Positions 2,408-33,573 are shown, counted from the first letter of the stretch. The stretch is 44,164 nucleotides of DNA from a virus (IMGVR_UViG_3300017911_001227:1-44164); one strand, 5' to 3'. Translations and numbers: made by a program. Notes: generated from the letters alone by a model not told the origin.

Positions 2408-4870
2408 CTACGCGAAGAAATATTGACTATCCAGAACCTCTTCGAGAACTAAGTCTCCGCTCTCAGGGACAGGCGGCAGCTCGATGCCCAGTTGACCCTC
2501 TAGGCTGGCCTTAAAGTCTTCTAGCCAGTTCTTCTCGCTGTACATCTGCACGAACGCTTCACGGATACCGTAGCTAAGCCTCTCAGTGTCGCAAGCGTGC
2601 GTAGCGTAGCTATCGTGTACCATGCTGAAGTGCATAGAGGGGTCAATGTCAATCAGGTGCTCTACTGTACGCATCATGTGCGCAGCGTCTAGCGCGTGAA
2701 TGAAGTTAGGCGCGATAGAGAATGACATTTTGCGGCTGTGTATCTTAGGCGTTGTGCCGTCCGCTATTGTCACTCTCAGCCTGTTACCTACCGCGTTCAA
2801 CTCTACAGATGTAAGGTTAGGTTTGCGGTAGTCCTGCACCAGCAGGAAGCCTGAAGGCGTCGTCCAGTGTATCCCTGAGCCTTCCACAGATACTATCCTA
2901 GCGCACTCTTGAAGCCACGCCATGGCCTTCTGTGCGGCTACTACTACCTGCCCTGTAGCGTTCCAGACTATCTCACCTAGGTAGCGTGCAGCGTTGTACG
3001 GCTCATTAAATGGGCAAAGTTTATCGCGCTGTAGAGGCCTCAGAGTGTCCTCCATGATCTGGTCTGCGAAGCCTTGGCGCGTGGCCCCGTACGGTAGGGT
3101 CATCACGTTTCGCTTTACAGTCTTACGCTTCATGAGCGGTAACCACGCTTGGGCTGTAGGCTCACCGCGCTGCGCTCTCACTTTCAGCTCGGCCACTGTA
3201 GCGCCCAGAACCCTACTGTACAGGTCCTGAGGCTTGTCGGCAGGCGTAAGGTTCACCGCTGAGCCACCTATAGGGTCCTTCAAGAGCGCTGAAAGGTGTT
3301 GCAATCCATTACAAGACCCGTCTAGGGCGACTGGAAGGTGAGAAACGTAGTCGTCCCCGCACTCACGCGCCCCTGCCCACTCGAAGCAGAACGCTAGGAA
3401 CTGGAAAGGCTTGTCCGCCTCCATCCAGAACCGCTCAGCGAATGGCTCCGCTGCTGCTGCGAGTATCCTAGGCTCATTGGTGAGGACCCACTCCACACGC
3501 TCGTCAAGGCTGATCTTGTCTTCGCCGTGAGTGTTAGCCCCGTGTACAGCCAGCCAGTACCCGCCCTCAGTGCCTAACGGCTTACCTGTGCCGAATAGCA
3601 GGAGACCCTTGCTAAGGTCGTCCCCTTGCGGTTTCAGGAACTTAGGCTTGTCGTAGCAACGCCCACGGAAGTCTAGGTGCTTCGGGAAGTATATTTTCTC
3701 GAAGTCCTTGTGACGCTCGGCAACCTCTATAGTCTTCGTGACTGCTAAGATTTTGCCCTTGAGCGCGTTGTTCCTGAGGTGTGCTTCCCGGGCCGCTAAT
3801 TTGTATGCGTTGCGAGCCTCTTCATTAGTAGCGATGTCGTGCGGCTTTGTAGGTAGCGGCTCCAGCTCCATGGGAGGGAGTGACTCACAACTTATACCCG
3901 CTTCACGCATACGCTGCACCACGTCCAGTACACGCTTGTTAATTTTATACGGGACTTTCTGTAGGTAATTGAGCGAGTCAAACACTCTCGGCATCTCTGT
4001 TCGGTCGGCATTTTTAATGCCATTAGTGGCATGTCTCGCCACTACCATGCGGTTACTCGTGAGAGAATAGTACCCACCTACACGTGTATCCTCCCAATCG
4101 AGGGGAGGGGCTATCATAGGGCTCAGGTTAGGCGATAGGTCAGCCAATAGGTTATCCATAGAGGTAATCTGCTGGAAGAACTGGTCACTAATCTCGTAGA
4201 GTTTCTGAGCGCGTCTCTTGCGGGTCTCTACCCGCGATGTGACTATACCCAAGGTCTCCATTGCGGCCAGAAGGAACACGCCTAAGCGCACCTTTTCCTG
4301 AGTGCCCATAGGGTCAGCCTCAGGGCCTACCATTTTCCTGTACTTCTCTAGGATGTCTGTGCTACGGTTCACCGCCCCGTGAGCCCTAGCGTTACACCGG
4401 AGGACGATTGCCTTGAACATCCCCGGGTCGGCTTTGCGCAACTGAGTAGCCGCGTACTCCCGAGCGATAGCATCGCCTATGCCGAACCCTAGCTTAGCGT
4501 GCGTAGCGTCCTTGGCTCCGCTCGAAGCTGTAAGGTCAGTCATTACTGTTAGTGCGATAGCCGCCGTAGCGGTAGGCTTTAAGAGTTTCAGGGTGCGTAT
4601 CTCCGGGGGCTTCCGGCGCACCTTTCCGTCTTCCAGTCTGGCTATTTCGTCCACAATGAGGTCAGCTAGGGGCTGGATCATCATACTGATCACCGAGCGA
4701 GCGCCTTGTGTGTAGCTGGCCCGGCCTACACCGCGTGCTTTACTGTTGCTGGCCAGATACCGTGCGCGTCCAGCATCCGCCATGTCTCTCTCATGGTTAA
4801 GTTCCATGATCATTTCTTCTTCAGTCACATTTTGTGACCTCAAGTCTGAGCTTGTCAATTCAGTCTCCAT
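2408..4870 (-). CDS. Single-subunit DNA-directed RNA polymerase (T7 gp1-like)
   Basis: Motifs DFRGR, PVALDGSCNGLQH, RKTVKRNVMTLPYG, APNFIHALDAAH and VHDS. ATG 4870 is preferred over GTG 4903. Confidence 0.98.
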   Translation of the reverse strand: METELTSSDLRSQNVTEEEMIMELNHERDMADAGRARYLASNSKARGVGRASYTQGARSVISMMIQPLADLIVDEIARLEDGKVRRKPPEIRTLKLLKPTATAAIALTVMTDLTASSGAKDATHAKLGFGIGDAIAREYAATQLRKADPGMFKAIVLRCNARAHGAVNRSTDILEKYRKMVGPEADPMGTQEKVRLGVFLLAAMETLGIVTSRVETRKRRAQKLYEISDQFFQQITSMDNLLADLSPNLSPMIAPPLDWEDTRVGGYYSLTSNRMVVARHATNGIKNADRTEMPRVFDSLNYLQKVPYKINKRVLDVVQRMREAGISCESLPPMELEPLPTKPHDIATNEEARNAYKLAAREAHLRNNALKGKILAVTKTIEVAERHKDFEKIYFPKHLDFRGRCYDKPKFLKPQGDDLSKGLLLFGTGKPLGTEGGYWLAVHGANTHGEDKISLDERVEWVLTNEPRILAAAAEPFAERFWMEADKPFQFLAFCFEWAGARECGDDYVSHLPVALDGSCNGLQHLSALLKDPIGGSAVNLTPADKPQDLYSRVLGATVAELKVRAQRGEPTAQAWLPLMKRKTVKRNVMTLPYGATRQGFADQIMEDTLRPLQRDKLCPFNEPYNAARYLGEIVWNATGQVVVAAQKAMAWLQECARIVSVEGSGIHWTTPSGFLLVQDYRKPNLTSVELNAVGNRLRVTIADGTTPKIHSRKMSFSIAPNFIHALDAAHMMRTVEHLIDIDPSMHFSMVHDSYATHACDTERLSYGIREAFVQMYSEKNWLEDFKASLEGQLGIELPPVPESGDLVLEEVLDSQYFFA

Positions 4871-5030
4871 TACGTGTATGTGTGTTGTGTGTTCTCGCAC
4901 CACCGCCCGCGCCCATTCTCTTGCTTTAGAAAGAATGGTTATAATGTCGTATATACGTATAATACCGTATATGCCTGTTGCACCTACAGAACCCGCATAA
5001 ATACGTGCGAGGGTGCATATTTTTATTATG

Positions 5031-5072
5031 GGATTTTGAATCCGTCGTGTATACCAATTTCACCAGAGAGGC
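5031..5072 (-). other. attP core: 5' half of a tRNA-Leu(CAA)
   Basis: Minus strand GCCTCTC-TG-GTGAAATTGGTATACAC-G-ACGGA-TTCAAAA-TCC gives acceptor 5' strand, D arm and anticodon arm (CAA). The match breaks after the anticodon loop and no T arm follows. It lies directly downstream of the integrase. Confidence 0.85.
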
Positions 5073-5092
5073 CCTTATTGTTTCCCTGTGCC

Positions 5093-5149
5093 GTGCCACC
5101 GTGTGGCGCTGAGTGCCACTAAGCGCACCACCTGTACCACTCGTGCCAC
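5093..5149. repeat. Cluster of GTGCCAC-like heptamers; putative integrase arm-type sites
   Basis: GTGCCAC at 5093, 5113 and 5143; GTACCAC at 5134; GCACCAC at 5125; all between int and the att core. Confidence 0.55.
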
Positions 5150-5175
5150 TAATATAGTCCTCATGTATGTGTAGA

Positions 5176-5222
5176 GAAAAGCCCCCGGCACAATATCCCT
5201 GTGGATAACGCGCCGGAGGCTC
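5176..5222 (-). terminator. Hairpin/terminator downstream of integrase
   Basis: Minus strand GAGCCTCCGGC...GCCGGGGGC followed by TTTTCTCT. Confidence 0.6.
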
Positions 5223-5255
5223 TCTCTTTCACACACATACACCAGAGGTGTTTCG

Positions 5256-6332
5256 TTAAACCTTCGCCTCTAATAGGTCACGTGCAGCGTCCATCTCGAA
5301 GGGGAACAGCTTCACATATCGAAGGGTCATCTTTATATTCTCGTGCCCTAACCATCTCTGTGTCAAGGTTAGGTCCTTAGTAAGGTTGTAAACGCGGCTT
5401 CCACATGTGTGCCGTAAAGCGTAAGGGATGAACCCTTTGTCATCCTCTAGGCCCATGCGAACCTTAGCCCAATCCCAAGCGTGCCGGATTATATCGTTAG
5501 TGGCCCACCCGAACGGCTCAGAAGTCCCGCTGCACTTAGAGTGCTGCCTGTGAAGCGCAATGTTAGCGCGTACAGTTAGCGGTACCGTGCGAGCTTGGCC
5601 GTTCTTTGTTTCGCGAACTGTTAGCCTGCGATCCACTAGGTTTGACATGTGTAAAGCTCGGGCCTCACTAGGGCGCACACCAGTATCCATAAGGAAGGTG
5701 AACAGGTCTTCAAAGTCCTCCCCGGGGCGCGAGCGCAGGGTGTTGCAATCGTACTCCTGCTTGAACAGGCGAATAAGCTCCCCGAACTCTTCATCAGTGA
5801 TCACTCTGTCCCTAGTGTTATCGCCTACTTTAGGCAGATTGAAATGCGGCACGTTCTTGACGGCACCTAGCCTAGAGTAGTGATTGAAGACCTTGGTCAA
5901 GGCGCTCGCTTTGTTGCGAATAGTGGCCGGCTTGAGGTCCCTGTCCTTCAGCTTTGTAATCCAAGCGTTCACTCTCGCTGTTGTTATGTCGTTCAAGGGC
6001 GTGTTCTCCCCGAAGTGGGCACATATCTCCTCGATCTGATATGACCGGGCCTTATCGTTAGCAGTACCAGACCAGTGTTCCTTGTGGACAACCTCAAAGG
6101 CTGTTCTGAGAGGTATACTCCCCGGAGACATTGAGCCTTGTGTGTTACCGCCTGTAAGCTCCCTGTAAGTGGACACGGGGTTACCGGCCATAAGGTCGGC
6201 CCGTACCTGAGCCTCGTACGCTCTAGCGCTATGAATGTCACAGTATACAACTTCACGGTGCCTATGCTTAACACCTGAGCGGGTTACCTGTACGGACACT
6301 TCAAGTCCGTTACCTCTAGGATTTACTGGCAT
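5256..6332 (-). CDS. int: Tyrosine integrase
   Basis: TGVRPSE (R), TKNG (K), YALRHT (HxxR variant), WLGH and MTLRY (catalytic Y); N-terminal arm-binding-like region. Confidence 0.95.
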   Translation of the reverse strand: MPVNPRGNGLEVSVQVTRSGVKHRHREVVYCDIHSARAYEAQVRADLMAGNPVSTYRELTGGNTQGSMSPGSIPLRTAFEVVHKEHWSGTANDKARSYQIEEICAHFGENTPLNDITTARVNAWITKLKDRDLKPATIRNKASALTKVFNHYSRLGAVKNVPHFNLPKVGDNTRDRVITDEEFGELIRLFKQEYDCNTLRSRPGEDFEDLFTFLMDTGVRPSEARALHMSNLVDRRLTVRETKNGQARTVPLTVRANIALHRQHSKCSGTSEPFGWATNDIIRHAWDWAKVRMGLEDDKGFIPYALRHTCGSRVYNLTKDLTLTQRWLGHENIKMTLRYVKLFPFEMDAARDLLEAKV

Positions 6333-6348
6333 GATAGTTCAATCTCCG

Positions 6349-6744
6349 TTAATCTCTGCGTACGTGTTCACAGACCCGCGCTAACAGGCCCCTACCTTTA
6401 ACACTCAAGGCCCACCGGGTGATCCTCAAGTCCACAGGGTCATCCCTGCGCTCTAGTAGCCCTAAGGACTTCCTAGAGTTCTCTGTCCTTGGCTGGCCCA
6501 CTCTGCGACCACCTAAGCGCCTGCCCCCTAGGGCCTGCGTTATGCGGGATATTGTAGGCGAGAACATACCAGTGTTATTTGATATGTCGCTCACACTAGG
6601 GGGCTCCCCGTGGTTCAGTTCGTGCTGTGCCACGTATAGAAACACTGTGGCGTAACTCACAGGCAAATCGTTCTCTATTGCCCTGAAGGAATTTAACACT
6701 AACCGTAACCGACGTATCTCCTCATTATCGCTGCTGTTTTGCAT
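6349..6744 (-). CDS. Winged-helix (MarR-like) transcriptional regulator, putative repressor
   Basis: SVSDISNNTGMFSPTISRITQAL (HTH) and GLLERRDDPVDLR..ALSVKGR (MarR wing); immediately upstream of int. Confidence 0.8.
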   Translation of the reverse strand: MQNSSDNEEIRRLRLVLNSFRAIENDLPVSYATVFLYVAQHELNHGEPPSVSDISNNTGMFSPTISRITQALGGRRLGGRRVGQPRTENSRKSLGLLERRDDPVDLRITRWALSVKGRGLLARVCEHVRRD

Positions 6745-6851
6745 CCCGTTGTTACCTTGTACCTATCAAAGCTATGTGTGTTTTTATATACGTATTAACG
6801 CTTATTAACGCACGGTAACATCATAAAAGTTAATTTACAAGGTCGATGCTA

Positions 6852-6888
6852 ATACCCAAAAAACCCCCCGGGGATTGCCCGGAGGGGT
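6852..6888 (-). terminator. Intrinsic terminator, exact 37-bp duplicate of 7185-7221
   Basis: ACCCCTCCGGGCAATCCCCGGGGGGTTTTTTGGGTAT on the minus strand. Confidence 0.8.
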
Positions 6889-6898
6889 AAGTGGAGGT

Positions 6899-7129
6899 TT
6901 AACCAAAAGTGACTTCTTCGCCGTAATTCGGCTTGCGTACGTGCAGAGACCAGTAAGGCTCCGCATATTGTTTATCCTTTGAAAGCGCCTTGTAGCCGCG
7001 CATCCCAATGGTAGCTGCCTGCGCTTGTGTGTGCGCGAAGCGTTGCTCTAACAGGTCATCCCCGTCATAGAAACGTACCTCAAAGATAGGCTTAGGGTTC
7101 ATAGGATCGTACAGGTTATTAGTTCGCAT
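6899..7129 (-). CDS. Small early hypothetical protein
   Basis: SD AAAGGA upstream; bracketed by the duplicated terminators. Confidence 0.7.
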   Translation of the reverse strand: MRTNNLYDPMNPKPIFEVRFYDGDDLLEQRFAHTQAQAATIGMRGYKALSKDKQYAEPYWSLHVRKPNYGEEVTFG

Positions 7130-7184
7130 GTTTCTTCTTCCTTTATGAAGTGCTGTGTGCGTGTGTTAAATGTGGATAGTCCAC

Positions 7185-7221
7185 ATACCCAAAAAACCCC
7201 CCGGGGATTGCCCGGAGGGGT
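7185..7221 (-). terminator. Intrinsic terminator, exact duplicate of 6852-6888
   Basis: Same hairpin plus T6 tract. Confidence 0.8.
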
Positions 7222-7229
7222 TAATTAGG

Positions 7230-8102
7230 TCAGACACTAGAGGTAGTCTTGATGTTATCGTTAAGCGCGTGCATCGTGGGCTTTACTTCCTGCGGCTTAC
7301 GGGTCCGAGCGCTTGAGGGTCGTTTCCTGCGGCGCTTGGCCTGACTTGCAGCAAGTGCAGCTTCACGCGACCGTATGGCCATTGCGTGTGTGCCAATAAA
7401 CGCTATCACGATAGCCAGTGCCACAAGAACGGCAACACTAGCAGAAACAGCCTTAGGGAGTAGCCTAGGGGCCGCAGGTGGGACCCATGCCCGCCCATAT
7501 TCCCTAAGTTCCTTGAGGTCGTCCAGAGCTCTCTCTCTGTCCCTTATCAAAGGATCAGCTAGCGCATTGTAGACCATAAGGTCAGAGGTGCGCGTCTCAG
7601 GACACCAGCACGCCCTTTCAGGCATTTGCGGGATGTGTGCTAGGGCATGTTCAGCATTAGCCAGCCTGCCAGTAGCGTCCTGAGTTGTCTGAGAGATATA
7701 CGCTTCATGCGCCTCTAGTTCACTGGCGACTTTCTCGGCTCCGTAGTTCTTTTCGAACTGCCAGAAAGCCCTAGTGTTTCCCGCACCGTCCACCAAGGCG
7801 AGCCCTAGTGTTGCCACAAACAACAACGCAGCGGTGGCGTGTTGCTTATGGTGCGCCGCGTGAACTAGAGGCCCAGTAACCGCAGCGGCAGCGAGCGGGA
7901 CCCCTAGGAAAACACTGGCCAGCCCAAAGGCTAAGAACTTGCTGATTGCCCAGAAGGTAAACAGCCAGCCAATAGCCCCGAAAGCAGCGAATAGCAACGC
8001 CACGATCCACAGAATGGACAGCGTGGCGCTATAGGTGTGCGCGTCTATTGTGAGAGGTTTCTTTCTCACAGCAGAACCGCGCTTCCTGCCTTTATTAGAC
8101 AT
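7230..8102 (-). CDS. Early multi-pass membrane protein (about 4 TM segments with a soluble coiled region)
   Basis: Hydrophobic segments near the N-terminus and one near the C-terminus. The likely start is ATG 8102 (MSNK) after AAGAGAG; the ORF-track extension overlaps the ribozyme. Confidence 0.75.
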   Translation of the reverse strand: MSNKGRKRGSAVRKKPLTIDAHTYSATLSILWIVALLFAAFGAIGWLFTFWAISKFLAFGLASVFLGVPLAAAAVTGPLVHAAHHKQHATAALLFVATLGLALVDGAGNTRAFWQFEKNYGAEKVASELEAHEAYISQTTQDATGRLANAEHALAHIPQMPERACWCPETRTSDLMVYNALADPLIRDRERALDDLKELREYGRAWVPPAAPRLLPKAVSASVAVLVALAIVIAFIGTHAMAIRSREAALAASQAKRRRKRPSSARTRKPQEVKPTMHALNDNIKTTSSV

Positions 8103-8135
8103 TGTTTTTACTCTCTTTTTGTGTGTGTGTAAGTG

Positions 8136-8217
8136 TAGCCTAGTCATCATCAGTACCCATTCGGCTAGTCATGGGTAGACTATGAGAGGACCCTAAGGCC
8201 CCCTCACAGTTTCGACT
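8136..8217 (-). ncRNA. Type II hammerhead ribozyme (copy 3 in transcription order); predicted cleavage GUC^ between 8178 and 8177
   Basis: AGUC-GAA-[14-bp stem III ACUGUGAGGGGGCC/GGUCCUCUCAUAGU]-C^-[stem I UACCCAU/AUGGGUA]-CUGAUGA-U-GACU. Stem II is GACU/AGUC; loop-I UAGCC pairs with the 3' tail GGCUA. Confidence 0.92.
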
Positions 8218-8218
8218 T

Positions 8219-8755
8219 TTAAATCACTTTGAACGCGTAATATTCACCCATGCAATGCTCACTACCGTCATAGTGTGCGAAGTGGTGGCCATAACCATCT
8301 GCATCCGCGTAACCTTGCGCTATGTCTTCAATGTGAGGCAAACACGCTTCCCCTAGGGCCTCATATACATCGGCCTTTTGTAGCGCCTCAATGACCTTCA
8401 AAGGAAGCCCAGTGTGACGTGCGAGGAAACTAGCGTTGAAACTACCTAGGATATAAGTATCATTAGACAATTCTTCGGCCAGTATTGACAGAATGTCGCC
8501 CTCATGAATGAACCTATAACCGCCCGCCTCAAAGTCTGAGCTGCCACGAGATAGCTGTTCAACTAACCATAGACATTCGTCCAAATCGACTACTAGTTGG
8601 AACATCTCCTCAAGCTGTTTAGGTGTTAAGTCCAACTCTCGTATATGCTCTAAGGCTTCCGGATACATCTCAATCAAAAGATTAGTCTGCTTGTACTTGC
8701 CAGCCGCAACCAGCTTAGCTGTACCGCGTTCAATTTGTGTTTCAAGATTATTCAT
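8219..8755 (-). CDS. Acidic early hypothetical protein
   Basis: 178 aa, D/E-rich; flanked by ribozymes on both sides. Confidence 0.8.
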   Translation of the reverse strand: MNNLETQIERGTAKLVAAGKYKQTNLLIEMYPEALEHIRELDLTPKQLEEMFQLVVDLDECLWLVEQLSRGSSDFEAGGYRFIHEGDILSILAEELSNDTYILGSFNASFLARHTGLPLKVIEALQKADVYEALGEACLPHIEDIAQGYADADGYGHHFAHYDGSEHCMGEYYAFKVI

Positions 8756-8813
8756 AATCTTAAGTCTCTCTTTTAGTGTGTGTAAGTGATAGTTCGGTAA
8801 GAACGGCTTACCT

Positions 8814-8894
8814 TAGCCTAGTCATCATCAGTACCCATTCGGCTAGTCATGGGCAGACTATGAGAGGACCCTAAGGCCCCTCATAGTTTCGACT
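8814..8894 (-). ncRNA. Type II hammerhead ribozyme (copy 2); predicted cleavage between 8856 and 8855
   Basis: Same core CUGAUGA/GAAA/GUC. Substitutions relative to the other copies keep pairing (A-U for G-U in stem III, G-U for A-U in stem I), with a 1-nt bulge in distal stem III. Confidence 0.92.
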
Positions 8895-8895
8895 T

Positions 8896-9384
8896 TTAAC
8901 GGAGTGTCAACTCGTACCCATGTTTGCGCGCCATGTATACAGCGACACAATCGACCTGATCAATAGGGAACTCCCCTCCGTTATTGCTGGCATACTCCAA
9001 CTGACCGTTTATTTCACTGTCAATCAGAGCGCACCAGAACCGCGTTGTGTCAGACTGACCATAATGTTCAATCAGTTGTTGACACTGTATAGCCGCCACT
9101 TCTCTTTCACCTTCAGGTGTAAAAGGCAGATCATAGCGAATATGCACCGCGTCATGCCATGCCCGGAACGCCCAGTTGAACTCTGGGCATCCGAATATAG
9201 TATTCTCAGAAGCCCCGGACCATACCTTAATGTGGCCCTTGCTTCTTTCGTAATACTCTTTCAACTCAGCGAAGGACTGCGGAGCGTCCTCGCCTGCCGT
9301 CCATCCTGTGGCATAAGTGTTTGCCATTGTGAGAACAGCGGCGTTGAAAGTACGGGAAACGCGTGGTTTAGGTTGAAAAATCAT
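8896..9384 (-). CDS. Early hypothetical protein with HxxxH motif
   Basis: 162 aa containing FRAWHDAVH; first gene after the early promoter, flanked by ribozymes. Confidence 0.8.
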   Translation of the reverse strand: MIFQPKPRVSRTFNAAVLTMANTYATGWTAGEDAPQSFAELKEYYERSKGHIKVWSGASENTIFGCPEFNWAFRAWHDAVHIRYDLPFTPEGEREVAAIQCQQLIEHYGQSDTTRFWCALIDSEINGQLEYASNNGGEFPIDQVDCVAVYMARKHGYELTLR

Positions 9385-9437
9385 AAGATTTATCTCTCTT
9401 TGTGTGTGTGTTTGAGTTCGGTAAGAACGGCTTACCT

Positions 9438-9543
9438 TAGCCTAGTCATCATCAGTACCCATTCGGCTAGTCATGGGTAGACTATGAGAGGCCCTGAGTT
9501 CGGTAAGAACGACTTACCTTAAGGCCCCCTCACAGTTTCGACT
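9438..9543 (-). ncRNA. Type II hammerhead ribozyme (copy 1) with insertion in the stem III loop; predicted cleavage between 9480 and 9479
   Basis: Core intact; a ~25-nt module (9497-9520) replaces the UUAG loop of stem III. Confidence 0.9.
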
Positions 9544-9602
9544 TCTGGTCCCTTAAAGGCCTTCCTTGTTACACACACTAGGCCCGGGATTGAAGGTTGC
9601 TT

Positions 9603-9636
9603 ACGATGTCAAACAGCTGGCGGCTATCTGTCCGCC
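9603..9636 (-). promoter_or_regulatory. rrn-like antitermination element: hairpin (boxB-like) followed by boxA-like GCTGTTTGACATCGT
   Basis: GGCGG-ACAGATAG-CCGCC hairpin, then GCTGTTTGACA (compare boxA GCTCTTTAACA), just after the predicted start site. Confidence 0.6.
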
Positions 9637-9646
9637 GATGCCCATA

Positions 9647-9675
9647 GAGATAGATGAGAGGTCGCACCTTGTCAA
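9647..9675 (-). promoter_or_regulatory. Host sigma70 early promoter TTGACA-N17-TATCTC
   Basis: Perfect -35 box, 17-nt spacer, and a -10 box lacking the last T (common in Alphaproteobacteria); it points into the early genes. Confidence 0.7.
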
Positions 9676-10015
9676 CCCCTAGTGAACATTGGGGTTCTGA
9701 GTGAACAAGCGCTCACAAAATCACAAAACGCATCAAAAATGCGCCTCTCCCCCACATACAGGCACGAAGGAAGGCTTGCGCTTATGCATAGATGCATGGG
9801 TTAAGCTATGCATAATTGCGAAAAAGCAATGGGGATAGCGCCACACATAGGATCATACATCCCCCGCCGATCCCCGTCACCATTGGCATTCTAGCGTGAC
9901 CCGTGGCGCGTCTCGTGGCGTGGCCTGCCTCACAGCCTTGCGGGCCGGGGGCACGGGGGGCGCACGCTGAGCCACGGGGTCTTATATAGGGTCTCAGATT
10001 TTTGTACCAAAATCC

Positions 10016-10059
10016 AAAGTCCACCTAAAGTCCACCTAAAGTCCACTTAAAGACACCCT
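10016..10059. repeat. Tandem 11-bp repeats (AAAGTCCACCT x~4) in the presumed genome-end region
   Basis: AAAGTCCACCT AAAGTCCACCT AAAGTCCACTT AAAGACACCCT; contains CCTAAAG as in the T7 short terminal repeats. Confidence 0.75.
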
Positions 10060-10497: not shown

Positions 10498-12369
10498 TCA
10501 TACAGGTCTACTATTGTTACTGTTATCATTGGTCTTCCCCCTTATGGTCATTCCCCCTAGGGACCTTTTCATGGGGTTGTTACCTTTAGACTTAAAGGAA
10601 CTATTAGTCCTAGGGTCTATCCCTGTGAACACTTGGTCCTTAAGGTGTTGCTTGATCTCTTTCATGAGGTCTTTTTCCTTGGCCTTCTCAGCGGCGGACT
10701 TGGCGTCTTGAGCCATAGCGTCTACCCAGTACCCTACAGCTTCTGCCACAGCGTCAAGGCGGTCATCGTGAGCTAGTGCCCCTTTGTCTTTTGTTATGCG
10801 AGTCATTTGGTAGAACAAGCGGTACTTTAGGCTCTTATCGGGTGTCCCGTAGCTTTTCACTAGATCGTCGTCCAAGCGTATAGCATTCTCGCATACCACC
10901 AGACGGTGTTGTGTCATTATGGGCTCTAGGGTATCTATGATCCTCTTTTCCTTCTGTACGGTGCTCCTAACGCTTTCTACGGCGCACATGTGCCCTACAG
11001 CTCTCAGGTGGGGTATGAGTAGCTTGGCGAACATGCCCTGTCCGAAGTTCTCTTCTACAAGGATAAGGTTGACCCCTTGGTTCTTAGCGTCAGTAGCTAT
11101 TTCCCTAAGGATAGTATCTTCGTAACCTCCTTGTTTACCCTTACAGAGTGTCAGGAAGACTGTAGCGTTGAGCATCTTAGTGACAGCCCAAGCAGTTTCG
11201 TCTTTACCTCTGCCTGAAGGGTCAATGGCCATTACTGACCCTGTGTACGGTAGGAAGGTACTGTCCACGTATGGGGGCCTAAAGAAGGCATCTCCGTCTA
11301 ACCCGGGGGTAAACAGGTCGCTATACTTGAGGTTACCCTTAGGTCCCCATGCGAAACTGGAGGGGGCTCTAGCTCGATCTAGAGGATAGACTATGAGGTC
11401 TTTCAGTTTGAGCGGGTATCTCTCAGCGTCACTCAGGGACGTATCTAGGAGGAACTGTAGAGCGTACCCTGCTGAACCGTAGGACAGCTTACGTTCTGCA
11501 AGGTCAATATCGGTGAAGCGTTTAGGGTCAAGGGAAGTCTTTAAGCCGTGCCTAGGTATAGCCACGTCCAGCACGAAAGGGGCCAGCTTGTAGCCCATTC
11601 TTTCGATGTACTTATCGTTAGGTATCTCAGAGGGCCATATGCGTATCTCGTAGCCTCTTTCCCCTAGTCTATTGTAGAGGGACTGCTCGGTCTGTGGGGT
11701 CCCCAGATAGATCACATGTCCAGCAGGTTTAAGCACAGCGTCGAACTCTTTGACGCTTTCGGATAGTTTGTCTCTTTGGTCCTGTGTAGCAGAGTTACCG
11801 GGGACCTCAACGTCATCGGCAATGATTACATCAGCACGAGAGCCTGAGAGTTGCCCTGTGATACCTACAGATTTAACTGAGGGTGAGTGCTTAGCTTTGG
11901 CTGGGCCTACGTCGAAGGCTACGTTACTGTCCCGTTGCCCGGTCTTAGCTTGCAAGTGCTGAAGGATGCCCATCTCAGAGATAAGGCGCTTGGTAAACGT
12001 AGAGAAGTCATCAGCGCGTATCTTAGAGGCCGATACTACCATGATACACAAATCAGGGTCTCTCAATAGGAGCCAGCACACGAAGGCAGAGGTAACGTAG
12101 GATTTACCTACACCTCGGAAGCCCATGATGATCCTACGCTTCACTCCGTGTTGCAGGTAATCAGCGATGTCTAGTTGGATAGGGGTAGGCTCAGGGAGGC
12201 CCAAGTGTTCCCAAGTTAGCCTTAGGAATACCTTGAAGTCAGTGTATATAGGCCAGATGTCCGGATGGGCAGGATACGCTTGTTCCCACCATGGGTCTAC
12301 ACTGGGTAGGTGGCCTTCAGGGTGCAACAATGCAGTGTCAGTTACAGATGTAACGGGCATATGTCTCAT
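10498..12369 (-). CDS. terL: Terminase large subunit (T7 gp19-like)
   Basis: GFRGVGKS (Walker A), IIADDVE, YLGTPQ, AIDPSGRGKDET and HDDRLDA. Confidence 0.97.
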   Translation of the reverse strand: MRHMPVTSVTDTALLHPEGHLPSVDPWWEQAYPAHPDIWPIYTDFKVFLRLTWEHLGLPEPTPIQLDIADYLQHGVKRRIIMGFRGVGKSYVTSAFVCWLLLRDPDLCIMVVSASKIRADDFSTFTKRLISEMGILQHLQAKTGQRDSNVAFDVGPAKAKHSPSVKSVGITGQLSGSRADVIIADDVEVPGNSATQDQRDKLSESVKEFDAVLKPAGHVIYLGTPQTEQSLYNRLGERGYEIRIWPSEIPNDKYIERMGYKLAPFVLDVAIPRHGLKTSLDPKRFTDIDLAERKLSYGSAGYALQFLLDTSLSDAERYPLKLKDLIVYPLDRARAPSSFAWGPKGNLKYSDLFTPGLDGDAFFRPPYVDSTFLPYTGSVMAIDPSGRGKDETAWAVTKMLNATVFLTLCKGKQGGYEDTILREIATDAKNQGVNLILVEENFGQGMFAKLLIPHLRAVGHMCAVESVRSTVQKEKRIIDTLEPIMTQHRLVVCENAIRLDDDLVKSYGTPDKSLKYRLFYQMTRITKDKGALAHDDRLDAVAEAVGYWVDAMAQDAKSAAEKAKEKDLMKEIKQHLKDQVFTGIDPRTNSSFKSKGNNPMKRSLGGMTIRGKTNDNSNNSRPV

Positions 12370-12486
12370 AACTTTCTATAATTGTGTAATGTCCACGCTA
12401 AGGCCCCTAGGAGGCCCGTGGAGAGCCTTTAGGAAATTCTAGGTACAATGTGTTACCTTTGGCCCTAAAGGCTCTCTGTGAGCTTC

Positions 12487-13131
12487 CTAGGAGGTTTCTA
12501 GCTCTTCTATGACCTTGAGGCCATTAGTAGCGGCCAGATAGTCAACGTGGGGTCTGCCGAAGAGTATCGCATCGTCGACCATAGGGTCTGCGCTACTGAT
12601 AATCATGGCTCTCAGTTGCTCGATTTGTGCAGGGTCAACACCACCATCAGCACTGGCGAGTTGTGCCATATACCCATTGTAGACTGCTAGGTCTCTGTCT
12701 AGGTCATACACTTGCTTGATGATAGCTTCGCGCTCTCTCACCGCTTGTCTGTAAGCGTTCGCAGGTGCTCGTATAGCTGTAAGTTCGTCATAGTAAGCCA
12801 CAATGTCGGCCTGATATGTCTCACTTTCAGGGTCTACAGGGTACACCAGCTCGGCCTCTTGAGTAGCGGCCAACTCCATCTGCTCTTCTGTTAGTGGCTC
12901 AGGGGCCTCAGGGATGTCCGGAGGTGTCTCAGGTTGCCCTGTGACTAGCCAGTAGAAGTATCTGTGGGCAGCCGCGTGCAGGCCCATATGGGTAGGCTCT
13001 CCTGTCCCTGAGGGGCTCATGGGGATGCTGAAGCCTGATGAATAGCCCAAGGCTCCTGCGAGTTGGTTTATGGGCTCTAGGGCGGCTACGGGTGCTATGA
13101 GCACCATAGACCTGATATTGTAAGTGCTCAT
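12487..13131 (-). CDS. Hypothetical protein (possible tail-associated/chaperone)
   Basis: Coupled to the upstream fibre/spike gene; contains PMSPSGTGEPTH. Confidence 0.7.
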   Translation of the reverse strand: MSTYNIRSMVLIAPVAALEPINQLAGALGYSSGFSIPMSPSGTGEPTHMGLHAAAHRYFYWLVTGQPETPPDIPEAPEPLTEEQMELAATQEAELVYPVDPESETYQADIVAYYDELTAIRAPANAYRQAVREREAIIKQVYDLDRDLAVYNGYMAQLASADGGVDPAQIEQLRAMIISSADPMVDDAILFGRPHVDYLAATNGLKVIEELETS

Positions 13132-32805: not shown

Positions 32806-33411
32806 CAGGGGTTGTTCAAACAAGGGTGCAAGCCTTGTCCCGCCCACTAAGTGGGGCAGCTACATGTTGCCATGTAGATCAGACTATATCTTCACTAGAG
32901 TGTTTTTGCAGATAGTGTATAGCACTTTGTAACCGTACCGGGTCGTCCTTCATAAGGCCCAACGCGGTGTTGCAGTTAGTACAGAGTAAGCCCCTGACCT
33001 TGCCTGTTTTATGGCAATGGTCTACAGCGAACTTTCTGAACCTCGAGCTTTCAAGTTTGGTCCTGCAAATAGAGCAGCCATGGCCTTGCGCTTTCAGAGT
33101 TTTGTGGTAGAAGGTAAAATCTACACCTAGTCTTGCAATGAGTTTCTTCTCTTGCCAGCAGGTTTTGCAATCTGTACGGAATGTTCCGGACTCAGATCGC
33201 CAGTAAAAGTGCTTTTTGTCGAGGGGTTTTTCAATCCCACACGTCTTACAAACTCTAGTGTCCGGTGTTTCAGAACACATGAGCTTTGTCCTTACGGGCG
33301 TTTTCCGCCCTAGTCGTTGAACCTACCTCCTGTTAAGTGAGGCAGGCTGCTGATTGTCTCAGAGAGAGTTTCCAGCAATTAACCAGATTTTACTCGGGCA
33401 AATCTTTAGCT
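32806..33411 (-). mobile_element. Group I self-splicing intron (606 nt) in the major capsid gene
   Basis: 5' exon ends in U and the intron ends in G. P1: exon UCGGGU pairs with IGS GCCCGA. P10: AGAUUU pairs with exon 2 AAAUCU. Core elements P AAUUGCUGGAAA, Q AAUCAGCAG, R GUUCAACGACUA, S AAGAUAUAGUC (P7 GACUA/UAGUC). Confidence 0.93.
32879..33280 (-). CDS. Intron-encoded homing endonuclease, EndoVII (His-Me finger) family
   Basis: CKTC..CKTC zinc finger, then CSIC...VDHCHKTGKVRGLLCTNCNTALG; lies between R and S, and its stop overlaps S. Confidence 0.9.
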   Translation of the reverse strand: MCSETPDTRVCKTCGIEKPLDKKHFYWRSESGTFRTDCKTCWQEKKLIARLGVDFTFYHKTLKAQGHGCSICRTKLESSRFRKFAVDHCHKTGKVRGLLCTNCNTALGLMKDDPVRLQSAIHYLQKHSSEDIV

Positions 33412-33573
33412 ACCCGAAGTGAGAGTTCGTACAGTGTGGCGGTCGCCAAATACGTTGCTCTCTTCAAAGGCGGTCATAACTTCTCCGCCATAAGTTTTGA
33501 GGAACAGGGCGCGTTCATCTACACCCTGAAGGTTCTCACCCGCACGGGCAAGAGTAAAGTTTGGTGCGGCCAT
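33412..33573 (-). CDS. Major capsid protein (gp10), exon 1; not in the ORF track
   Basis: SD AAGGAG; MAAPNFTLARAGENLQGVDERALFLKTYGGEVMTAFEESNVFGDRHTVRTLTSG matches the T7 gp10 ALFLK.F.GEV.TAF...R.I.SG motif. Confidence 0.92.

Follow-up and report, generated by a model that had tools for sequence, protein, structure and literature searches.

How does a T7-like phage obtain separate messages from its early genes when each gene follows a candidate self-cleaving ribozyme? The question is raised by positions 7230–9675 of the virus record IMGVR_UViG_3300017911_001227, a complete 44-kb genome (44,164 nucleotides (nt), analysed whole and hereafter called the window) of a T7-like phage with temperate features. 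Our reading, to which we give a probability of about 0.7, is that three hammerheads split the early RNA made by the host polymerase into messages of one gene each, the job done by host RNase III in T7, with the cutting itself predicted. The original prediction for this locus, made from the sequence alone, had the phage process its early RNA itself and independently of the host. The processing part is well supported by the anatomy of the locus, by the precedent of Perreault 2011 and by exchanges of the cutting element before orthologous genes in relatives; the claim of host independence is too strong.

Scanned with a type II hammerhead descriptor, the window yields exactly three matches, with C17 at 9480, 8856 and 8178 of the minus strand, against a mean of 0.01 and a maximum of 1 per genome in dinucleotide shuffles (n = 200), which bears out the three ribozymes originally placed between the first genes. 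Each copy carries the core elements CUGANGA and GAAA and a UH triplet, here GUC, in type II order, and in each, stem I has 7 bp, stem II 4 bp and stem III 11, 11 or 14 bp, with loop I paired to the 3′ tail in a 5-bp pseudoknot. Perreault 2011 describes this pseudoknot as a feature of type II hammerheads (PMC3088659; this and the other papers given by accession are cited from excerpts). The folding z-scores are −3.0, −3.3 and −3.9, and the shared core of the three copies is 97% identical. Hammerhead 1 spans 9438–9543, with a predicted cut after C9480 and one copy of a 22-nt module inserted in its stem III loop. Hammerhead 2 (8814–8894, predicted cut after C8856) and hammerhead 3 (8136–8217, predicted cut after C8178) begin 1 nt past the stop codons of genes 1 and 2, respectively; two ribozymes had been said to start 1–2 nt after the preceding stop, and both do so at 1 nt. 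The predicted pieces after cutting measure 624, 678 and about 987 nt, the first two agreeing with the earlier figures of about 620 and 680 nt. One extra U follows A9 in each copy, between A9 and G10.1, and a U at this position reportedly raised trans-cleavage 3–4-fold in a viroid hammerhead (PMC3705267).

Three results speak against this identification. The copies receive no Rfam hammerhead score, even at E ≤ 10 on 2.7 kb, and so lie below the cut-off of the type II family RF02276; a sequence-only model built from 22 of the relatives' ribozymes misses the window copies, its alignment being poor in the stems; and stem II of ribozyme 2 has a low predicted pairing in context (0.12, in a model without pseudoknots). 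Because both the Rfam and the sequence-only models miss them, the identity of the three elements rests on the descriptor. They share with RF02276 the core, the three stems, the open stem II and the pseudoknot, and the Rfam miss, probably due to the long stem III and the 10-nt loop I, is a limit of the model and not a mechanistic feature. Other members of the extra-U subtype pass the cut-off: a pattern search found the subtype in 135 viral loci, and 11 of the 20 loci run through Rfam score above the RF02276 threshold, with 25 matches in all. Among 150 distinct extra-U cores, 97 have a pseudoknot of at least 4 bp, compared with 29 when the tails are swapped. The three window elements are very probably hammerheads, with cleavage predicted. 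The extra-U subtype occurs widely, in about 220 stored stretches, and 4–9 tandem copies occur in the unrelated viral contigs L038, L078, L018 and L029.

In the mechanism that we propose, host polymerase would make one early RNA. After each cut, the upstream RNA would end directly past its stop codon in a 3′ hairpin, formed by stem III and bearing the cyclic phosphate, and the downstream RNA would begin with a 5′-hydroxyl (5′-OH) end folded into stem I and the pseudoknot, with an open CA-rich leader behind it. 5′-OH ends are poor substrates for RNase E. Each gene would thereby form a unit of its own, insulated, protected at its ends and expressed independently of its neighbours, and such insulation would permit accessory genes to be gained, lost or reordered. 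Relatives fill the same slot with hammerheads of other sequence or with a two-hairpin element that is a likely RNase III site.

Searches with the polymerase, integrase and terminase recovered eight close relatives in which the early region is visible, and two clade fragments, L137 and L138, that lack it; metagenome and genome scans returned no close relative with an early region. The eight relatives and the window form one clade with a support of 100/100, and the early region contains hammerheads in 8/8 relatives: 4 in L139, 1 in L140, 2 in L141, 10 in L153, 1 in L187, 9 in L270, 5 in L276 and 10 in L280. Further out, 8 of 32 loci carry them, these 32 being what was kept of 72 after 40 with less than 4 kb of sequence past the terminase were dropped. 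In the clade, type II ribozymes start between −3 and +5 nt from the stop of an open reading frame (ORF) in 27 of 37 copies and within 16 nt in 34 of 37. A stop triplet lies at most 3 nt from the ribozyme in 26 of 34 cases, against 6.1 expected at random. The ribozyme that comes first in each of the eight relatives is instead of type III and follows a conserved purine-rich stretch (L139 925, L140 3314, L141 4645, L153 483, L187 3445 and L270 on the minus strand; also L276 and L280), where the window has a type II copy.

The comparison of gene content between repeats proposed at the outset was made with gene maps of the nine genomes: the genes between hammerheads are shuffled, gained and lost among relatives. 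The accompanying suggestion that the repeats may serve as points for gene swapping fits the shuffled order. Taken further, the repeats would be mainly DNA recombination anchors for accessory-gene exchange and their catalysis incidental, as the near-identity of the three window copies (97% over the shared core), the variable gene order and content and an identical 37-nt terminator repeat around a 76-amino-acid (aa) ORF might suggest. Among the clade ribozymes, however, the core is invariant while the stems vary, and even within L153, L270 and L280 the copies differ in their stems while keeping their pairing and invariant cores. This combination shows RNA catalysis, and not the identity of the DNA, to be what is selected, and makes the anchor account very improbable.

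The clade also provides exchanges of the cutting element itself. A two-hairpin element fills the hammerhead slot in L187 (8 copies, 3845–7515), L141 (3 copies, at 4917, 6054 and 6463) and L140 (2 copies, at 4648 and 6115). Its first hairpin has an upper stem of 8–12 bp, separated from a short lower stem by a 3 × 3 internal loop; a second hairpin of 4–5 bp comes next, ahead of a CA-rich leader. In an alignment of seven of the eight L187 copies, from which a duplicate was omitted, 96% of the cells are paired and both partners change in 7 of 16 pairs, a level reached by none of the 500 shuffles and none of the slid controls. The homologue of window gene 3 lies behind a hammerhead in the window, L153, L270, L276 and L280, and behind a two-hairpin element in L187; the same kind of swap before one gene is seen in two more gene families, three in total. 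Hairpin users fall into two separate, well-supported subclades, each adjoining hammerhead-only phages, and therefore the switch happened at least twice. A stretch of 13 nt is identical between stem I of an L139 hammerhead (1670–1682) and an L140/L141 swap hairpin (L141 6077–6089), which hints that one recombined from the other.

The swap element is probably an RNase III site that would give the same two protected ends, to judge from its geometry and pairing. At the place of the T7/T3 distal box, expected about 11 nt from the cut, an A-U and a U·G pair are invariant in 7/7 aligned L187 copies. With the T7 cut register, derived from a 28-nt product (PMC1540722, figure legend), the predicted cut coincides with the nucleotide that opens the second hairpin for 10 of 14 elements and lies 1–2 nt before it for two more; a 5′ hairpin is predicted in 12 of 14 copies. 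Several points tell against this assignment. The cut offset was chosen after the elements had been seen, so the RNase III reading rests on geometry plus a post hoc offset; the canonical distal box is absent in 5 of 13 copies, all from L140 and L141; and a covariance model of T7/T3 RNase III sites gives no match to the swap hairpins in five relatives. Among the eight L187 copies, one was mis-parsed by the automatic choice of stems, and the pattern does not fit one additional hairpin of L140. A pattern search with the L140/L141 motif returned these phages alone, plus one chance match in a coding region.

If both elements yield end-protected RNAs, the question is whether protection is the purpose of the cut. 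The ribozymes might instead limit or time expression, by uncoupling genes, by speeding decay or by silencing, for example in a lysogen. Cleavage of the glmS type triggers decay in Bacillus. A 5′–3′ exonuclease, RNase J, is present in Alphaproteobacteria (PMC4179960), and the module following ribozymes 1 and 2 can fold in two ways, of which one would block the pseudoknot, a hint of regulation. On the other side, hairpins would cap both new ends in the window, the swap element is likewise predicted to leave a 5′ hairpin (the 12 of 14 copies above), and RNase J needs a 5′-monophosphate and affects few transcripts in Rhodobacter (PMC4179960). We regard a limiting role as unlikely.

The module in question occurs on the minus strand at 9498–9518 (copy 1, inside the stem III loop of hammerhead 1), 9416–9436 (copy 2) and 8792–8812 (copy 3, downstream of hammerhead 2). 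The 22-nt module can form a 6-bp hairpin of −6.0 kcal/mol; a two-hairpin alternative of −7.9 kcal/mol, pseudoknot energy not counted, would at copy 2 pair with the ribozyme's pseudoknot tail. It had been read as an optional H-type pseudoknot, which is ruled out in favour of the 6-bp hairpin since loop 3 would be 0 nt; a loop 3 of that length is sterically implausible. A role as repressor operator was also rejected: the palindrome is found only in the three copies and at no promoter, even with 2 mismatches. With no exact match in viral contigs and none with up to 3 substitutions in 354 loci, the module looks private to the window phage.

A bolder account would make the swap element an uncatalogued class of self-cleaving ribozyme and the module a two-state switch of ribozymes 1 and 2, letting the phage regulate the cutting of its early message, with a plug-in RNA-cutting socket before each early gene. 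The swap hairpins match no known ribozyme in Rfam, and a catalytic core is argued against by the variable loop letters; we consider this account improbable.

The doubly cut 624- and 678-nt RNAs have also been proposed to be circularised. Ligation by RtcB or by the ribozymes would turn them into functional circular mRNAs, and their ends would suit such joining: once closed into a circle, either piece again contains, at its junction, a hammerhead that passes the descriptor. That complete hammerhead would re-cut the circle; the hammerhead equilibrium favours cleavage. The RNase III-type ends predicted for the same slot in relatives would not be RtcB substrates, given their end chemistry. Perreault 2011 searched for spliced or circular products and detected none (PMC3088659), and circles are doubtful, functional circular mRNAs being highly improbable.

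For the reading of the hammerheads as early-message processors, the remaining evidence on the other side is as follows. Eight of the ten cultured T7-like phages checked have no hammerhead in this region, and the hammerhead is therefore dispensable in this lifestyle. The alternative fold of the module would take the ribozyme's pseudoknot tail and block the pseudoknot. Host independence, finally, is partial at best and its full form overstated, because the phage relies on host RNA polymerase for transcription and still has long hairpins of the RNase III type: those at 5148–5243, before the polymerase gene (z = −7.4), and 12406–12491, before the terminase gene (z = −5.7), both on the minus strand, look in folding models like candidate RNase III substrates. 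The two cultured phages with early-region hammerheads are the Rhizobium phages RHEph01 (1 copy) and RHph_I20 (3 copies). Their hammerheads are unannotated (RHEph01, L354 2107; RHph_I20, L358 770, 3141 and 3833).

The arrangement itself has been known since 2011 and was partly tested then. Perreault 2011 reported several hammerheads flanking single prophage genes and proposed single-gene mRNAs and circles as products, and three triple arrays cleaved in vitro and in Escherichia coli (PMC3088659). As in the window, those arrays comprise three type II hammerheads with a loop I/tail pseudoknot flanking single genes near an integrase, with variable gene content. One, in Agrobacterium tumefaciens, lies in a tail–ardA–marR–integrase context (PMC3088659, Fig. 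S2 legend), which matches the window in its order of tail or terminase side, accessory genes, marR and integrase. The window differs in its sequence and genes, with no confirmed ArdA match, and in the extra U after A9, the 22-nt module and the missing Rfam score. RNase III and stop codons have 0 occurrences in the main text of Perreault 2011 as available (PMC3088659), and no link between phage hammerheads and RNase III sites was found in a literature search that left most subscription journals outside. A 2019 review treats the processing of polycistrons by phage hammerheads as a suggestion needing more work (PMC6765202). The addition made here, from sequence comparison, is the presence of hammerheads with gene shuffling in 8/8 relatives and the exchange of hammerhead and RNase III-like hairpin before the same genes.

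Other systems resemble the locus in part. The T7/T3 RNase III signals R0.3–R1.3 share its genomic position and predicted intergenic cuts that leave a 3′ hairpin (PMC3867540, PMC1540722). The window cuts would be RNA-catalysed and leave 5′-OH and cyclic phosphate, in contrast to the 5′-phosphate and 3′-OH of T7, and a model of T7/T3 RNase III sites has no match at 7230–9675 and gives noise only in the window. The insulator RiboJ likewise sets a hammerhead and a hairpin before the ribosome-binding site to standardise the 5′ end, and raised mRNA about 2-fold and protein 2–10-fold; it is engineered, present in single copy and derived from a viroid satellite (PMC6206723). Theta ribozymes of gut phages also stand in for a host processing enzyme, with a hepatitis delta virus-like fold, and they process tRNA 3′ ends, not mRNA (PMC10879173). 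The clade offers a natural paired experiment in which the same gene lies behind a hammerhead or a likely RNase III hairpin. If both indeed give the same end-protected RNA, phage hammerheads would be natural gene insulators equivalent to T7 RNase III sites and RiboJ. RHEph01 and RHph_I20 are ready in vivo test systems.

The cassette genes all lie on the minus strand. Gene 1 (8896–9384, 162 aa, phrog_7806, function unknown) has homologues behind hammerheads in L270 and L280. Gene 2 (8219–8755) encodes an acidic protein of 178 aa and unknown function with 27 homologues. An atlas look-alike of gene 2 is named antirestriction, at template-modelling (TM) scores of 0.66/0.73 that lie below the atlas naming bar; Pfam and solved-structure matches include no ArdA, and the best fold-search Z is 3.9, so an ArdA antirestriction protein is not confirmed. 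Gene 3 (7230–8102) encodes a hydrophobic, likely membrane protein of 290 aa with homologues in L153, L187, L270, L276 and L280; its start is likely at 8102, because the listed ATG at 8150 falls within the ribozyme core. Early genes with hexapeptide-like tandem repeats, each behind a hammerhead, occur at L270 1–340 and L280 13930–14290.

Upstream of hammerhead 1, a likely host sigma-70-type promoter occupies 9647–9675 on the minus strand. Its TTGACA (9675–9670) has a TTGACA counterpart at the aligned position in five of the eight relatives, which favours the promoter originally placed here; its −10 element is weak and a consensus promoter scan did not list it. The boxA placed after it fared less well. 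The boxA-like 11-mer at 9607–9617 (−) has 2 mismatches to a sequence found exactly in the T7, T3 and phiYeO3-12 leaders, and with 13 such two-mismatch sites in the window it is not distinguishable from chance. The leader alignment of the relatives shows no conservation of it, and among five relatives searched such sites occur only in L153 (n = 2), neither of them between promoter and first ribozyme. The CA-rich leaders with AAGAGAG were found before all three genes as described: 9385–9412 for gene 1 (AAGAGAG at 9400–9394), 8756–8788 for gene 2 (8772–8766) and 8103–8135 for gene 3 (8117–8111), all on the minus strand. They are predicted to be more open than average, 0.56–0.84 unpaired against 0.43. 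The terminator also stands, as an intrinsic-terminator-like pattern, a hairpin with a T run at 7191–7221 (−). Its 37-nt sequence is present in identical copies at 7185–7221 and, 333 nt downstream, at 6852–6888; the two flank the 76-aa ORF (6899–7129) in what resembles a second kind of swappable cassette.

The minus strand carries all long genes of the window, among them a T7-like set with a single-subunit RNA polymerase (2408–4903), a primase/helicase and the large terminase subunit (10498–12369), the last gene before the likely genome end, together with a tyrosine integrase (5256–6332) and a MarR/IclR-type helix-turn-helix regulator (6349–6744). The hammerhead region sits between the terminase and the regulator–integrase–polymerase block. 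In two cultured phages, Pasto and LUZ100, the equivalent block begins shortly after the left terminal repeat, so the cassette genes can fairly be taken as the first to be injected. An alphaproteobacterial host is our guess, because of a 79.5% match over 83 nt to Caulobacter phage ERS and a layout in common with Rhizobium phages. The non-coding gap that follows the terminase contains short head-to-tail repeats (10015–10050), probably close to where the genome physically ends. Between integrase and polymerase a tRNA is present in three relatives, and Rfam lists none in the window. A group I intron at 32860–33477 (−) (Rfam RF00028, 73.7 bits) contains an endonuclease VII-type ORF, and weaker group I matches are present in L139 and L140.

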